DNA of 44,996 bases from an uncultured bacterium. Lineage in GTDB: Bacteria; T1Sed10-126; CAZEBV01. The notes under the pieces are model-generated. The model saw only the letters and a list, made by a program, of their open reading frames with translations. It had not been told where the DNA came from and did no database searches. Below are positions 18,927 to 44,996 of this stretch, in pieces (position 1 is the stretch's first letter; the number at the start of each line of letters is the position of its first letter). The translations under genes were made by a program, and so were the position numbers. The DNA lies in NCBI GenBank assembly GCA_964510695.1, contig CAZEBV010000001.1, forward strand, positions 1-44,996. The letters run 5' to 3'.

Positions 18927-19464
18927 CCAGGGCGAAGGCCCCGTCGCGCTTCACGACGTCGTCCTGCTGGTCGGCCATCGCCTCCAGGACGCGGGCCACC
19001 CGGTCGGCTTCGTCGTTCATGGCCAGCCGGTCCGCGACCGCCCGGGCCGTGGTCATCTCCTGCCCGTTGATGATGAGCATGTCAGACAGCCACGCCCGGA
19101 TCCGCCGGGCGAGCCGTTCGTTGTCCTCGAGGATCTCGCCCGACCCGTTCATCGAGGCAGAAACCCCACGGTCTCGGGGGGGGGCGTCCTCCTGGTCCGT
19201 TTCGGGGTCGCCGTCCGCGTCGTCGAGGTCGACGTCCTCCTGGTCCCACATGAGAAGCTCGTTCGGGCTGACCTCGAGGGCGAAGCACAGCCGGACAAAC
19301 GAGTCCAGGGCCGGGGAGTACCGGCCACCCTCATACTGCGAAATGCTCGGGCCGCTCGTGCCGGCCACCGTCGCCAGCTCCCGTTGGCTCATTCCCAGGT
19401 CATCCCGGCGCTGTTTGAGCATCCTGGACACACGCCCCCGGGCGTCGAAATCGGGCGGGATCAT
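18898..19464 (-). CDS. XRE-family HTH transcriptional regulator with an acidic linker and a C-terminal domain
   Basis: LGMSQRELATVAGTSGPSISQYEGG HTH. Start placed at ATG 19464 (ATGA overlap with the SLT stop); GTG 19509 is an alternative. Confidence 0.75.
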   Translation of the reverse strand: MIPPDFDARGRVSRMLKQRRDDLGMSQRELATVAGTSGPSISQYEGGRYSPALDSFVRLCFALEVSPNELLMWDQEDVDLDDADGDPETDQEDAPPRDRGVSASMNGSGEILEDNERLARRIRAWLSDMLIINGQEMTTARAVADRLAMNDEADRVARVLEAMADQQDDVVKRDGAFALVDGEGSVRA

Positions 19465-20030
19465 CGACGAACCACCCTCCGCGTCCCTCGAAGTCGGGTC
19501 CTCAGCCACTCGATCCGCTCGGCGATCTGATGCTCATACCACGCCCCGGCCGGGCTGGGCCCACCGGCATACCAGCACCGAAGCGCATAGGCCCCGCACC
19601 ACTCCATGCAGTAGCGCAGATACCGCACCCCCTGACGGAGGGCGTAGGCGTCGTCGGTGTTGTAGCGATTCGACCGGTACGGGTGCCGGCTGACCGTCCG
19701 GTGGGCGATGGGTGTCACCTGCAGGACCCCGGCGGCGCCGGCATGGGACGTGCGGGGGTTGTAGCTGGACTCCTGCCCGGCCATCGCCACGATCAGAAGC
19801 GGGTCGAGGTCGTGCTTCTCGGCCACGTCTCTGATCATCCGCGACCACCGCAGGCTGTGGCGGGGCGTAAAGCCGGGGCGCTCGACTCGGACGGCCCGGG
19901 CGATGCGGTGGGTCTCACGGAAGCTCTCCCAGCCGTGCGGGTGGCCCTCCGACGGACTCGCCAGCCACGACGCGATCAGGAAAGCGACCGCGAGGGCCAG
20001 CATCACGTAGATCGACCAGTGTGTTCTCAT
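19461..20030 (-). CDS. Membrane-anchored lytic transglycosylase (SLT domain)
   Basis: N-terminal TM (IYVMLALAVAFLIASWLA) and GQESSYNP ... AGAAGVLQVTP catalytic motif. Start at ATG 20030 with GGGGAGG leader. The upstream part of the 353-aa track ORF is Arg/Gly/Pro-rich and implausible. Confidence 0.8.
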   Translation of the reverse strand: MRTHWSIYVMLALAVAFLIASWLASPSEGHPHGWESFRETHRIARAVRVERPGFTPRHSLRWSRMIRDVAEKHDLDPLLIVAMAGQESSYNPRTSHAGAAGVLQVTPIAHRTVSRHPYRSNRYNTDDAYALRQGVRYLRYCMEWCGAYALRCWYAGGPSPAGAWYEHQIAERIEWLRTRLRGTRRVVRR

Positions 20031-27078: not shown

Positions 27079-27618
27079 TTAAGCTACGCTTCTCGAACCG
27101 TTCCTACTCCCCAAAGCGGCCTCCTTTTCAGGAGCCGAGCCGGACGTGTCACATTCCGTCACGAGCGAGTCCTTGTAGCGGTGGGTGCCCCGGAAGACGC
27201 CGACCACGTGATCGCCCTCGATCGAGCCCCCGCTTCCGGCACACGACCGGGAGCAGTAGGTGTGTTTGTTGGGCTTGACGAGGTGGGTCTGTCGGCGGCG
27301 TCGGATGAAGATGGCCTCGCAGGAGGGGCACCGAAGCACGGCCCACGTGATGCCCGTGGACTTGTGCTCCCGGCAGTGGACGCTGTCGGTGACGACTTCC
27401 AGGTTCTCGATTCGGTTGTCGGACTTGTCTTCGTTCAGGTGGTGAACATGCTCGTTAGGGCGAAGATAACGGCCTAACTCGGCCTCCATGACCAGGCGGT
27501 GCTCGTAGACGTACCCGCCATGCTTGGAAGCCTGGGGATGGTCGGGGACCTTGCACCGGATGTAGCCGCAACCGTTCGTCGACCGGCCCCGAATGTCCCA
27601 CTTGCCGATGGTGTCCAC
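27079..27618 (-). CDS. HNH endonuclease with a C-terminal Cys cluster
   Basis: VHHLNEDKSDNRIENLE HNH core; CPSCE...CSRSC. GTG start with GGAGGGG SD. First gene after attP. Confidence 0.8.
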   Translation of the reverse strand: MDTIGKWDIRGRSTNGCGYIRCKVPDHPQASKHGGYVYEHRLVMEAELGRYLRPNEHVHHLNEDKSDNRIENLEVVTDSVHCREHKSTGITWAVLRCPSCEAIFIRRRRQTHLVKPNKHTYCSRSCAGSGGSIEGDHVVGVFRGTHRYKDSLVTECDTSGSAPEKEAALGSRNGSRSVA

Positions 27619-27718
27619 CAGGTGCCCCTCCAGGACGGAAGGGCGCTTGAAGGGAAAACGTCAGCGGGGTAGGATTATCCTCCTGATTTCACGAGAAGGA
27701 ACGATCAACACACGGCCG

Positions 27719-27768
27719 TCTCGTTGCCAACGAGAAGGTCGGGGGTTCAAATCCCCTCACCCGCTCCA
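27719..27768 (+). other. attP core: 3' 50 nt of a tRNA-Gly(GCC), from the anticodon stem to CCA
   Basis: TCTCG-TTGCCAA-CGAGA anticodon arm (GCC), AGGTC variable loop, GGGGG-TTCAAAT-CCCCT T-arm, CACCCGC-T-CCA acceptor end. No D-arm or 5' acceptor strand upstream. Integrase lies 450 bp away. Confidence 0.75.
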
Positions 27769-27803
27769 TTCAAACGCCCTATCCGCTTTTCAAAGAATCC
27801 TGC

Positions 27804-27822
27804 CTGTCACGATCTGTCACGA
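27804..27822. repeat. Tandem direct repeat CTGTCACGA-T-CTGTCACGA (candidate integrase arm-type or accessory sites)
   Basis: Two identical 9-mers 10 bp apart, 36 bp from the tRNA-derived core, followed by GACTTC-N4-GACTTC. Confidence 0.4.
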
Positions 27823-27842
27823 CTTCCTCTGACTTCAACCCT

Positions 27843-27871
27843 TATTATTCCTACCAGAATAGGAATGTCAA
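27843..27871 (-). promoter_or_regulatory. Candidate sigma70-type early promoter with an embedded dyad operator
   Basis: On the - strand: TTGACA (27871..27866), 17 bp, ATAATA (27848..27843). The perfect dyad ATTCCTA-N6-TAGGAAT (27847..27866) fills the spacer. Points toward attP and the HNH/early operon. Confidence 0.45.
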
Positions 27872-27878
27872 GGGGGTT

Positions 27879-28085
27879 CTACCCCTGGAGTTCAAGCTCC
27901 TGTTTCAGGATTCGTTGCCAGGGCTTCGAGGGGGTGGCGTATCCGGTGAGCCACTTGCTAATTCGAGGCTGGTCTGTGTCGAGCTGGTCGGCAAGCTCCT
28001 CCTGGGTGAGACCGTTTTCGTCCATGTAATCTTGGATGGCTTCGCTCCAGTCGATCTCGTCGGCCATCGTGGACTCCGTTGACAT
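27879..28085 (-). CDS. Cro/CI-type HTH protein (Cro-like regulator or excision factor)
   Basis: NGLTQEELADQLDTDQPRISKWLTG HTH. GGGAGG SD. Divergent from the integrase gene. Confidence 0.7.
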   Translation of the reverse strand: MSTESTMADEIDWSEAIQDYMDENGLTQEELADQLDTDQPRISKWLTGYATPSKPWQRILKQELELQG

Positions 28086-28118
28086 GAGATTCCTCCCACA
28101 GTGATTTAGGTTGCTCCT

Positions 28119-28147
28119 ATTCTTAACCGAATATCCCTTGACGTCAA
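28119..28147 (-). promoter_or_regulatory. Candidate promoter for the Cro-like gene
   Basis: On the - strand: TTGACG (28147..28142), 17 bp, AAGAAT (or 16 bp, TAAGAA). Shares the palindrome TTGACGTCAA with P-int. Confidence 0.35.
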
Positions 28148-28166
28148 CCGGGGGACCGCCTATACA
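28138..28166 (+). promoter_or_regulatory. Candidate integrase-cassette promoter
   Basis: TTGACG (28138..28143), 17 bp, TATACA (28161..28166). Followed by the half-site TTTACGCGC (28169..28177). Confidence 0.45.
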
Positions 28167-28216
28167 CTTTTACGCGCTGTTTTGTGGGGGTTTCCGGGTG
28201 GGACTCGGTGATCGCC

Positions 28217-29338
28217 ATGAAGGGAAGCATCCAGCAGATCGAGCGTAAGACCAAGACCGTCCACCGTGCCCGCATCGACGTCCCGTCGCCGGACGAGGAC
28301 CGAAAGCAGATCAGCAAGACCTTCGACGAGGAGGGGGATGCGACGACGTGGCTGATCCAGAAGAACCACGAGATCAGCACGGGGACGCTGGTGACGCCCT
28401 CCGAGATGTCGATGAAGCAGTACCTCCAGAAGTGGATGGAGGATGAGAGGGACGCGATTCGCCCCAAGACCCACCAGAAGCGCCAGTGGGCCATGAACCA
28501 CATCCTGCCCGCCCTGGGGCACGTGGAGGTCGGGGATCTTACGCCCTACCACCTACAGACGCTTTACCAGGACAGGCTGGAGGACCTCGCGCCCAGCTCG
28601 GTGAAGAACCTGCACGAGATCCTGCACAACGCCCTGCGAAACGCCTGCCGGCTGGAGATCATCGCGGACAACCCGGCGAAGAACGTGTCCCCGCCCGCGA
28701 AGCCGGACCCGGATTTCACGGTCCTCGACGGCGAGCAGATCGAACGCTACCTGTCAGCCGCCCGGGGCCGGCGGTACTACCCCGTGCTTCTGACGCTCGT
28801 GATGACCGGCCTCCGGCGCGGCGAGGCGCTGGGGCTACGGTGGGAGGACGTCTCGCTGGATGAGGCGAGCCTGAGCGTGCGTAAGACGCTGGGGCGCACC
28901 GACGAGGGGCTGGGGTTGGGCGATGTGAAGACCGCCTCCAGCCGGCGCTCTGTGGCGCTCATGGAGGCCAACGTAAAGGCGCTTCGGGACTGGAAACAGC
29001 GCCAGCTTCAGGAGCGTTTGAACCACCCGGACCTGGCCGGGCGCTCCGAGCTGGTCTATACGACCTCGGAGGGTAATCCCGTCCACCCTCGAAGCCTGCT
29101 GAGGTCCCACAACAAGGTCGTCGATCAGGCCGACGTCCCCGACGTCACGATCCACGACCTGCGCCACACGCACGCCACGCAGATGCTCCGGAATGGGACC
29201 CACCCGAAGGTCGTCCAGGAGCGGCTGGGACACTCCCGGATCGAGGTCACGATGGACACCTACAGCCACGTTTTGCCCGGGATGCAGGAGGACGCGGTGG
29301 AGGCGCTTGAACAGTCGATGGGGGCGGATACGGTATGA
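28217..29338 (+). CDS. int: Tyrosine integrase
   Basis: Catalytic-region motifs LLTLVMTGLRRGE, HDLRHTHAT, LGHSRIEVTMDTYSH. Start set at ATG 28217 (MKGSIQQIERK). Confidence 0.9.
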   Translation: MKGSIQQIERKTKTVHRARIDVPSPDEDRKQISKTFDEEGDATTWLIQKNHEISTGTLVTPSEMSMKQYLQKWMEDERDAIRPKTHQKRQWAMNHILPALGHVEVGDLTPYHLQTLYQDRLEDLAPSSVKNLHEILHNALRNACRLEIIADNPAKNVSPPAKPDPDFTVLDGEQIERYLSAARGRRYYPVLLTLVMTGLRRGEALGLRWEDVSLDEASLSVRKTLGRTDEGLGLGDVKTASSRRSVALMEANVKALRDWKQRQLQERLNHPDLAGRSELVYTTSEGNPVHPRSLLRSHNKVVDQADVPDVTIHDLRHTHATQMLRNGTHPKVVQERLGHSRIEVTMDTYSHVLPGMQEDAVEALEQSMGADTV

Positions 29339-43220: not shown

Positions 43221-44312
43221 TCAGGCTCGAAGGACGACGGTGTAGTCGACCTGGTCCACGGCGCCGGCGAGCCGGGTGTTGATCTCGACGTCCGGAAGCA
43301 CCCGGTTGGTGCGATCGCTCTCCGAGATGTCCGCGATGTCGGGGATGTTGATGGAGTAGTCGGGAATGCCCTCCGCGTCCCGGGCCACCAGATGCTCCTC
43401 GACGCCCTCCTGGAGAACATCCTCGATGGTCTGGCGGACCTGCTCGGCGCCCTGGGCGGTGTAGGGGATCTTGTCCTGGGCCAGGGCGACGGAGAAAAAC
43501 GACTCGGTGAACCGGGCGTTCATCCACAGCTTGATGATGGCGATGTCGGCGTAGCCGCCCGTGGGCTCGAAGCCCTGGGACGTCTGGGGCTCGCCCAGCT
43601 TCGACAGATAGACGGCCCCGTTTGCCCCCTCGATCGTGCTGATTTCCGTGGCCGTGTAGTCGCTGGCCCCCACGCCCTCCAGCTGCTGGAACTTGAAGTT
43701 GAGGGAGCCGGGAAAGTTGCTGGCCAGACGCCCGGCCATCGCGGCGTCCACCGGCCGGTCGATCGAGTCCAGGCTAGCCCCCGCGTTCTCGAAGGCCAGA
43801 AAATAAAGCTGGTCGAACTGGAGGTTGTTGTTCAGGTCGGACTCGATGCTGGTGGCGGTCTCGCCGGCGTTCGAGGTCGCCAGGAAGAAACGGTCGTTGC
43901 TGTCGCACCATCCGGCCACGTCGGCCCGGTCGCCCGCCACGCCTTCGGGCGTGGACCCGGTGCCCTCCCGGCTGGTCATGCACACGTAGAAGAAATCCTC
44001 GCCGGCGATGTTGTCCAGGGCCGTCGAAAGTTCCCCGTTGGAGGGCGCCCGCCCGCTGACCTTCAGCACGGCCACCCGGGAGGCCCCGTTCGAGAACATG
44101 TACTCCGCCCAGCGGACGATGCGGGGGTTGTTCGTGCGATCGTAGGCCGCCGTGAGGGCGGTCACGCTGTTGTAGACGTTGTATTCGTCGGTGGGACCGT
44201 TGCCGGTGCCGCCCTGACCCACGATCAGGGGGATGCGGAAGTTCGCCTGCCCGATCGGGATCTGGTTCTGCTCGAACTCGATGACGACATCGTCGGAGGC
44301 CTGGGAGCTCAC
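43221..44312 (-). CDS. Contractile tail sheath protein
   Basis: 363 aa. Size, position upstream of the tube, and sequence character (PLIVGQGG.., FFYVCMTS.., ADIAIIKLWM) fit small sheath proteins. Confidence 0.75.
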   Translation of the reverse strand: MSSQASDDVVIEFEQNQIPIGQANFRIPLIVGQGGTGNGPTDEYNVYNSVTALTAAYDRTNNPRIVRWAEYMFSNGASRVAVLKVSGRAPSNGELSTALDNIAGEDFFYVCMTSREGTGSTPEGVAGDRADVAGWCDSNDRFFLATSNAGETATSIESDLNNNLQFDQLYFLAFENAGASLDSIDRPVDAAMAGRLASNFPGSLNFKFQQLEGVGASDYTATEISTIEGANGAVYLSKLGEPQTSQGFEPTGGYADIAIIKLWMNARFTESFFSVALAQDKIPYTAQGAEQVRQTIEDVLQEGVEEHLVARDAEGIPDYSINIPDIADISESDRTNRVLPDVEINTRLAGAVDQVDYTVVLRA

Positions 44313-44317
44313 TCAGA

Positions 44318-44716
44318 TCAACCCTCCTCGAGGGCTTCGCGCCGCCGTTGGACGGCGTTCAGAACGGAGTCCCGATCGCTTTTCTGCTCGATCGTGTCCA
44401 GGGCGTCGTCGTGCTCCCCGTTTTCGATCTGTTTCACCGCTGTCTGCCACGGTAACGAGTCCACGGGGTTGGCGCTATCATATCCGCCCTCATCCTCCTC
44501 GGAGCGGGCCCCTCGGCGCTCCTCGAGGGCGTCCTCGAACCAGTCCGTCGGCTCAGAGACCTCAAGGACCTCGGCCCGATCGTCCAGGATCGCGTCCAGC
44601 ACCCTTGGATCCCGGGCCCGCCGAAGCGTCAGCGTGCGGGTCTGGCCGGCGAGGATGACCTCGCCCGTGGCCATCTGGAGGTCCTCGTCGTCGGTCACGC
44701 TCACTTTGAGCATCAT
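44318..44716 (-). CDS. Hypothetical neck/tail protein
   Basis: 132 aa. ATGA overlap with the upstream gene. Directly upstream of the sheath. Confidence 0.5.
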   Translation of the reverse strand: MMLKVSVTDDEDLQMATGEVILAGQTRTLTLRRARDPRVLDAILDDRAEVLEVSEPTDWFEDALEERRGARSEEDEGGYDSANPVDSLPWQTAVKQIENGEHDDALDTIEQKSDRDSVLNAVQRRREALEEG

Positions 44717-44996
44717 GGCACCGTCTCCCCTGCGGCGATGTCGGACGAATCGGCGAATTCAAGCTGCTCGATCGTCGCCAACGTGTGCGTGTCCCGGAGG
44801 TCCGCCACCAGCTGCACGTCCAAACCCTCAGAGACCTCCCGTTCGCCCTCCAGGTCCTGCCCCGATCGGCCGGTGTCGCTGAAGTCCCGGTAGGTGATGG
44901 CAAGGCCCTGATCGCAGGCCTCCTCGTCGAACCGATACAGCCAGTAGCGCCGCACGTTCCGGGCGATCTCCCCCAGCGGCTGGGTGCCCAGGCCCT
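44713..44996 (-). CDS. C-terminal part of the edge-split neck/tail-completion protein (see 1..268)
   Basis: The frame stays open upstream of the GTG listed at 44955, through to the window end (..GLGTQPLGEIARNVRRYW..). Confidence 0.6.
   Translation of the reverse strand, partial: GLGTQPLGEIARNVRRYWLYRFDEEACDQGLAITYRDFSDTGRSGQDLEGEREVSEGLDVQLVADLRDTHTLATIEQLEFADSSDIAAGETVP

Follow-up and report, generated by a model that had tools for sequence, protein, structure and literature searches.

A 44,996-nt stretch of DNA from an uncultured bacterium (hereafter the window, which is the whole of one contig at its full length) carries a near-complete, circularly permuted genome of a temperate myovirus in its attP form, that is, with the phage attachment site (attP) unbroken. 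We propose that a single near-consensus promoter, called P below, would be the polymerase entry for the long minus-strand transcription unit of this phage, that integration at the tRNA-derived attP core would split P from the operon, and that excision would rejoin the two. As an explanation of the whole arrangement we give this reading a probability of roughly one half. The features on which it is built are the following.

27844..27871, minus strand: candidate early promoter P, found by promoter scan (11/12), with the -35 hexamer TTGACA at 27871..27866, a 16-nt spacer and the -10 hexamer AATAAT at 27849..27844.
27847..27866, no strand assigned: operator-like dyad ATTCCTA-N6-TAGGAAT, perfect, found by repeat search and pattern scan.
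27879..28085, minus strand: gene for a 68-aa protein of the XRE/HTH_3 type (Pfam HTH_3, E=7e-9), with the Shine-Dalgarno (SD) sequence GGGAGG at 28097..28092.
27717..27768, plus strand: attP core, equivalent to positions 25-76 of tRNA-Gly(GCC), from an Rfam tRNA match of 24.4 bits (below gathering threshold) and comparison with relatives.
28184..29338, plus strand: tyrosine integrase gene (int) starting at ATG 28217 or GTG 28184 (Phage_integrase 9.6e-26, SAM-like N-terminal domain; phrog_1 1e-72).
27079..27618, minus strand: HNH endonuclease gene with a GTG start, preceded at 6 nt by the SD sequence GGAGGGG (27631..27625); the first gene of the early operon.

The quality and the position of P are central to the argument. 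Both of its hexamers are near the sigma-70-type consensus (TTGACA/TATAAT) and its spacer falls within the 16-18 nt range. Of the four sites in the 45-kb contig that reach 9/12, only P exceeds this score, and at 11/12 or better about 0.04 sites would be expected by chance per 45 kb, a value scaled from local shuffles made across the whole genome bin. Other intergenic gaps in the minus-strand gene train gave 0 matches of at least 9/12. The gaps flanking the helix-turn-helix (HTH) gene have GC contents of 0.53 and 0.48, the lowest among the intergenic gaps of at least 45 nt in the contig. The predicted start lies near 27837, leaving a distance of 219 nt to the HNH start codon downstream.

The bin to which the contig belongs comprises 2.26 Mb in 251 contigs and is 89.6% complete; its assignment as the host rests on binning and on tRNA similarity. 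Across the bin, 17 sites reach at least 11/12, compared with 2 in composition-preserving local shuffles. Most of the 17 lie in locally AT-richer DNA, either 14-130 nt upstream of long open reading frames (ORFs) with high GC content at third codon positions (GC3) or beside tRNA genes, and one stands immediately upstream of a tRNA-Met gene. By this enrichment of the consensus, canonical sigma-70 promoters are demonstrably in use in the presumed host, and P is one of the closest matches to the consensus in the bin. P is very likely a real promoter: it comes near the consensus, is unmatched elsewhere in the contig, lies between genes and in the direction of those downstream, and follows a consensus that the host bin uses.

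A first-pass annotation, made from the sequence without database searches, had already placed a promoter eight nt after the stop of the Cro-like gene (the 68-aa HTH gene), pointing across the tRNA-derived core toward HNH and the gene train. Coordinates and strand bear this out: the stop codon occupies 27881..27879, 7 nt intervene, and the -35 hexamer begins at the eighth. The same annotation read the promoter as TTGACA-17-ATAATA. The site and its AT block are indeed the same, but the register was off by one, with 16 nt and AATAAT as the better solution (ATAATA scores 1/6).

The dyad spans the whole spacer of P and reaches into both hexamers, by 1 nt at the -35 and by 3 nt at the -10. It is the sole match to its pattern in the window even when up to 3 mismatches are allowed, and TAGGAAT occurs nowhere else in the contig. 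The earlier description, a perfect dyad filling the promoter spacer in the layout of a repressible promoter, agrees with these observations. A perfect 7-bp dyad anywhere in the 260-nt intergenic region arose in 47 of 300 shuffles; the weight therefore lies on its position over P and not on its existence. Such a placement of a putative operator over the promoter spacer is the classical geometry of repression by occlusion.

XRE dimers of the 434 type bind half-sites with an inner 4-bp block and a spacing of N6 (ACAA-N6-TTGT), and the inner half-sites of the dyad read CCTA-N6-TAGG. As in the case of 434 Cro and CI, a small gene with the XRE-type HTH fold lies beside an N6-spaced dyad that overlaps promoter hexamers, and binding by its product is here putative. 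Unlike in 434, there is one operator rather than a tripartite OR, and the regulator gene lies upstream of the promoter that it would control and points the same way, instead of being divergent from it. The 68-aa HTH protein is most likely the candidate binder of the dyad, acting as a repressor or a Cro-like regulator. In a database of 5.8e9 proteins it matched only itself. We also looked for a second copy of the operator at the divergent promoters of int and the HTH gene, and a single half-site-like 10-mer lying over the HTH SD sequence was all that appeared, which was insufficient.

The attP core comprises the anticodon arm, the T arm, the 3' acceptor strand and the CCA end of a tRNA.

27724-27730, plus strand: anticodon loop by tRNA alignment, with the anticodon at 27726-27728.
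27741-27757, plus strand: T arm.
27766-27768, plus strand: CCA.

The Rfam tRNA model matches 27695-27758 below its threshold, and ARAGORN found no whole tRNA in the window. When 27717-27770 was compared with tRNA-Gly(GCC) of the same family and order, 52 of 54 positions were identical (96%). Against tRNA-Gly(GCC) from seven related genomes the fragment differs only at 27742, where it has G instead of T, and at 27756, where C replaces A. Together the two positions make up the T-stem pair 50:64, which has changed from U:A to G:C; the changes are thus compensatory, in keeping with a fragment that has to yield a working tRNA once integrated. This points to a tRNA fragment that has been kept functional for rebuilding the tRNA after integration. 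The pair might alternatively mean that the true host carries this variant, or that the phage-borne half has simply been kept foldable.

The homology block opens at tRNA position 25, where the 5' strand of the anticodon stem is about to begin, and extends to the CCA. Anticodon-centred attP sites, one of the major classes recognised (PMC4383910), are characterised by a fragment of this extent, anticodon stem to 3' end. With this segment and a tyrosine integrase gene adjacent to it, the attP described here is, by its sequence, a member of that class (site A of Islander/Williams).

Repeats flanking the core are consistent with a complex attP.

27804..27822, plus strand: two tandem copies of CTGTCACGA flanking the core toward P, a short way downstream of the predicted P start; candidate integrase arm-type sites.
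27640..27655, no strand assigned: left arm of a 16-nt inverted repeat (14/16); candidate attP arm site or leader-RNA pairing.
27765..27780, no strand assigned: right arm of this repeat, overlapping the tRNA 3' TCCA, so that the pair brackets the core.

The tandem 9-mer was seen in 0 of 300 shuffles and the inverted repeat, at 14/16, in 1 of 300. The arm repeats are non-random in this sense and support a complex attP of the kind used by a heterobivalent integrase; the CTGTCACGA pair and the 16-nt inverted repeat are probably integrase arm-type or accessory sites. The CTGTCACGA pair also falls at about +15 to +33 of the predicted P start, where a bound integrase could block P, and a weaker copy, ATTTCACGA, is present on the other arm at 27686-27694.

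The integrase gene is divergent from the HTH gene and starts about 450 bp from the core. Its product has the R...HxxR...Y catalytic motifs (by reading), and homologous integrases carry the arm-binding domain PF14657. Within the phylum of the bin, for which the genome collection searched holds only 12 genomes, integrases with 31-40% identity adjoin intact tRNA genes. At four such loci, in two of the genomes, integrases with 32-38% identity stand beside intact tRNA-Val, tRNA-Arg, tRNA-Tyr and tRNA-Ala genes. At all of them int runs toward the tRNA, the reverse of its orientation in the phage described here.

On the other side of the core, the genes from HNH to RecT are translationally coupled without internal gaps, successive genes overlapping by ATGA.

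27059-26763, minus strand: 98-aa gene of the early operon.
26766-26521, minus strand: 81-aa gene with ATGA overlaps on both sides, overlooked by the longest-ORF reading.
26524-26240, minus strand: 94-aa gene of the early operon, followed by the genes for the YqaJ exonuclease and RecT.

HNH and the genes behind it form one operon, and the attP region is its only upstream non-coding DNA. Between P and the HNH start a terminator scan found no terminator-like site and the leader contains no plausible coding ORF; its RNA fold is no better than that of shuffled sequences (z = -0.64), for which reason no attenuator or antiterminator is claimed. The promoter and its presumed target genes thus lie on opposite sides of att, in the same orientation and with no terminator between them, which is the layout of the Tn916/ICEclc type. 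The first-pass annotation had reported no comparably good promoter between the core and HNH, and we agree, the best promoter-like matches in this 98-nt segment (27619-27716) being 8/12 and 7/12.

Given a crossover in the core, integration must put the candidate promoter P at the end of the regenerated tRNA, facing outward, and the operon at the far end. The predicted order of the prophage, from left to right, is: the 5' half of the host tRNA, the phage 3' half, P pointing back into the tRNA, the HTH gene, int, the three small genes, the late and then the early genes in reverse order with HNH last, the phage arm, the displaced 3' half of the host tRNA and host DNA. This geometry had been foreseen from the sequence, and provided that integration takes place at the core it is right, because the shared block begins precisely where the anticodon stem does on its 5' side, a hallmark of an anticodon-centred attP.

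In the mechanism that we propose, P would be the entry point of the host RNA polymerase for the phage's single long minus-strand transcription unit. In the circular genome it would fire about 219 nt upstream of HNH and drive transcription antisense through the attP core and on into the early genes for recombination and replication. The operator would be the 20-bp dyad, with the 68-aa HTH protein, made from its own weaker promoter, as the most likely binder. The presumably heterobivalent tyrosine integrase would recombine at the anticodon loop of the host tRNA-Gly(GCC). In the resulting prophage P, the HTH gene and int would sit beside the regenerated tRNA, with P directed outward, while the early operon would sit behind the displaced tRNA fragment with at most a weak promoter-like sequence of its own. 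Integration would in this way add a physical lock on the lytic genes to repression, and excision, by rebuilding the P-attP-operon junction, would return full early expression. In this scheme we infer the activity of P, the binder of the dyad, the crossover point and the silence of the operon in the prophage.

A stricter form of the idea is tentative, and we regard it as possible rather than probable. If the 42-kb unit had no usable promoter in the prophage, derepression alone would be insufficient, and integrase-mediated excision would first have to rebuild the junction ('excise before replicate'). With such gating by excision, lysogeny would be robust to fluctuation of the repressor, and the HTH repressor would serve mainly for superinfection immunity and for stopping the outward-facing P from reading antisense into tRNA-Gly. 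For excision to come first, the genes for it would have to lie on the int side. Neither there nor elsewhere was an excisionase family recognised, as none of the small proteins matched Xis, Cox or AlpA in Pfam or PHROG, and this counts against the proposal. The 76-aa gene that follows int is coupled to it; a search for small-protein excisionases found only a self-match of its product among 5.8e9 proteins, sequence searches of the PDB were uninformative, and a single-sequence AlphaFold model with a mean confidence score (pLDDT) of 44 was unusable. An integrase of the BPs type apparently works without a directionality factor (PMC3694055).

Several further observations weigh against the proposed split of P from the operon. 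The contig was assembled in the attP form, and it is from this form that we infer integration. The bin has no tRNA-Gly(GCC) among its 36 tRNA genes, and no attB, attL, attR or junction fragments were found in it. The phage is an orphan, with no relatives in which the synteny of attP and the early genes could be followed. A 203-aa XRE protein encoded inside the operon could be the actual binder of the operator. Finally, two promoter-like sequences would stay on the operon side in a prophage. One is the 8/12 match TTGGCA-18-GATCGT (27730..27701, minus strand), whose TTGGCA, a 5/6 -35 match, is the antisense of the tRNA-Gly anticodon loop. The other is the 7/12 match with the -10-like GATAAT (27679..27674, minus strand) and a 2/6 -35, which is overlapped by an operator-like half-site.

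27668..27677, plus strand: GGTAGGATTA, a lone 9/10 copy of the left operator half-site, overlapping GATAAT.

In the prophage the 8/12 site or GATAAT could each support transcription, at a basal level or with the help of an activator. These two sequences make up the case for what we see as the most serious competitor, unlikely as it appears to us, namely that the operon keeps a weak or activator-dependent promoter of its own in the 98 nt between core and HNH, and that integration does not silence it. P would then only boost early transcription in the circle or extend transcription of the HTH gene, and lysogeny would be a matter of repression alone. The overlap of GGTAGGATTA with GATAAT hints at control by a repressor at this very place, and the region is AT-richer than coding sequence. 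Yet 7/12 matches occur here at the background rate (0.21 per 98 nt for at least 7/12, and 0.03 for at least 8/12), the -35 partners of GATAAT are 2/6, the criteria of the promoter scan find nothing in the 98 nt, and the strong promoters of the host are far nearer to the consensus.

We find it quite improbable that the split never occurs, with the phage being mainly an episome or purely lytic in the sample, the int-attP module little used or a relic, and P an ordinary early promoter. The contig does assemble across attP and close as a circle, the missing junction contigs and tRNA-Gly(GCC) would be explained, and the phage encodes a ParB-type protein; no ParA partner was reported, however, and metagenome assemblies often yield the excised or virion form even with lysogens present. 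Also against this reading are the complete domains of the integrase and the catalytic motifs read in its sequence, the intact tRNA fragment with a compensatory pair instead of decay, and the non-random arm repeats on both sides of the core. Equally improbable in our view is that the promoter-like block has another role, be it a site for a directionality or architectural factor or an outward promoter acting on host sequence, or that it is a coincidence. An attP arm could reach the dyad, which is 79-98 bp away from the core's 3' end, the integrase arm-like repeats are just downstream of the predicted start, and HTH proteins that act both as regulator and as excisionase exist (P2 Cox and 186 Apl). 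Against this, the roughly 0.04 sites at 11/12 expected per contig become far fewer for one particular gap and the right orientation, it is hard to see what would be gained by outward antisense reading into an essential tRNA, the promoter carries an operator-like dyad, and the HTH protein matches HTH_3 rather than the Cox or Xis families. The split of P from the early operon by integration thus stays our preferred explanation, with the odds given at the outset.

Searches for integrated copies and relatives covered GTDB genomes, the genomes of the phylum and metagenomes, and none of these collections contained an integrated copy. Short BLAST matches to the core in the bin were other tRNAs or coding sequence and not att junctions. 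In relatives tRNA-Gly and tRNA-Cys form a pair, but the tRNA-Cys gene of the bin (contig C15, 13168-13238) is not preceded by tRNA-Gly; its attB locus is unassembled or else broken, possibly through the coexistence of integrated and free forms. The integrase reached at most 43% identity among the 5.8e9 proteins, had no match in IMG/VR and only 30-36% identity in GTDB genomes; its 31-40% identical relatives in the 12 phylum genomes lie beside other tRNAs, with int convergent on the tRNA. Neither the portal nor the HTH protein had a match in the phylum, and the YqaJ exonuclease had none in IMG/VR. The large terminase subunit (TerL) found one fragment with 40% identity in IMG/VR and at most 34% identity in INPHARED. 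The operator/promoter pattern occurred in six IMG/VR contigs, which were all one unrelated AT-rich sequence, and in one metagenome contig, also unrelated and AT-rich; both were put down to chance. A 27-mer from the attP arm had no metagenome match.

The logic of a promoter split from its genes by an attachment site is already known from Tn916, ICEclc and ICEKp1, conjugative elements in which the nearest demonstrated counterparts are found. According to Celli and Trieu-Cuot (1998), as cited in PMC5812530, the transfer genes of Tn916 are expressed only from transcripts through the joined att site. The phage would share with Tn916 an outward promoter at one end and, in the circle only, long read-through into the genes at the other end. 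The differences are that our element is a tailed phage and not a conjugative transposon, that its att is a tRNA fragment while that of Tn916 is not, and that Tn916 relies on attenuation responsive to tetracycline whereas here an operator-like dyad lies in the promoter spacer. The Tn916 mechanism has been shown experimentally, while that of the phage is proposed from sequence.

In ICEclc an outward promoter, Pcirc, drives the integrase gene only after excision and is described as constitutive (PMC5812530), and ICEKp1 switches int promoters between the integrated and the excised state (PMC13023037). The phage would resemble both in having a strong outward promoter fused across attP to genes of the other end after excision, and in integrating at a tRNA gene. 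However, ICEclc and ICEKp1 switch on the integrase, which favours reintegration, whereas here the whole early and lytic train lies across attP and the integrase gene is on the promoter's side, divergent from P. Unlike the constitutive Pcirc, P carries an operator-like dyad.

The first-pass annotation had drawn a parallel to integration-dependent immunity in mycobacteriophages. In BPs, Brujita and Charlie attP lies inside the repressor ORF, so that the repressor loses its C-terminal degradation tag upon integration; rep is transcribed together with int, and the lytic promoter diverges from rep (PMC3694055). Conceptual kinship holds, as the phage shares a compact module of int, regulator and attP in which integration would alter the regulatory output and excision would restore the lytic-prone form. 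The defining feature, attP inside the repressor ORF, is however absent. The core ends at 27768 and the stop codon of the HTH gene lies at 27879-27881, with 110 nt of non-coding DNA between them, and the protein would be unchanged by integration. In addition, int (plus strand) is divergent from the HTH gene (minus strand), and the candidate lytic promoter is co-oriented with the HTH gene and downstream of it. Where integration truncates the repressor in BPs-type phages, here a promoter would be split from its operon; on this comparison Tn916, ICEclc and ICEKp1 are the closer analogues.

A further relative in logic is sib of phage lambda, an RNA-processing site downstream of int that acts post-transcriptionally and is separated from int by attP. 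There, too, attP parts a cis-acting element from its target gene and expression differs between the integrated and the free form, with the difference that here it is a promoter that would be separated from an operon. In the full-text literature searched (one library) we found no specific description of a tailed phage in which attP parts the early operon from its promoter.

If the proposal is true, a tailed phage would control its lytic genes by DNA topology in addition to a repressor, a logic demonstrated by experiment for Tn916 and for ICE integrase genes; this would bear on the working and evolution of simple genetic switches. It would also bear on the order of excision and replication, and hence on in situ replication and lateral transduction by prophages. 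Prophage annotation would be affected as well, as an 'orphan' outward promoter at one end may serve genes at the other. The phage offers a clean example of this layout in an orphan from a poorly sampled phylum, and its role in the life cycle is putative.

The int/HTH intergenic region contains candidate promoters for both genes.

28119..28147, minus strand: weaker promoter-like site of the HTH gene, TTGACG-17-AAGAAT (9/12, promoter scan), its -35 lying inside the palindrome TTGACGTCAA (28138-28147).
28138-28166 region, plus strand: TTGACG-17-TATACA upstream of int, its -35 also within TTGACGTCAA, from direct reading of the sequence.

The HTH-gene site is the second intergenic one among the sites of the contig that reach 9/12. 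The two divergent candidates have overlapping -35 boxes within the palindrome. The -10 of int, TATACA, is without the final T, so that activation may be needed for int. Alternatively, the tRNA-Gly promoter might drive int in a prophage, an arrangement known from ICEKp1, and there is no terminator-like site after the tRNA 3' end.

The gene map of the window was based on GC3 and the annotation on Pfam and PHROG. On the minus strand genes run from 27618 to 2 and then from 44955 to 30505, and the lytic transcription unit on this strand spans 42 kb, so that the first-pass estimate of a gene train of roughly 40 kb was correct. The first part starts with HNH, three small proteins, the YqaJ exonuclease and RecT, continues with a winged-HTH initiator, an SbcC-like ATPase, an SLT domain protein, the 203-aa XRE protein, RusA and the ParB-type protein, and ends toward position 2 with terminase, portal, protease and major head protein. 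The second part encodes tail sheath, tape measure, baseplate, fibre and lysis functions with a holin of the gene transfer agent (GTA) type. The plus strand holds only the integrase gene and three small genes after it. The gene order head-connector-sheath runs across the contig ends, and when these ends (1-400 with 44300-44996) are joined they form in frame one ORF of about 200 aa; because the head-to-tail order and this ORF both cross the ends, the contig is a near-complete circular permutation. It looks like a complete circular genome without terminal overlap. The SLT-domain protein, a transglycosylase of about 180 aa encoded at 19461-20009 (minus strand) inside the early region, had been overlooked by the longest-ORF reading.

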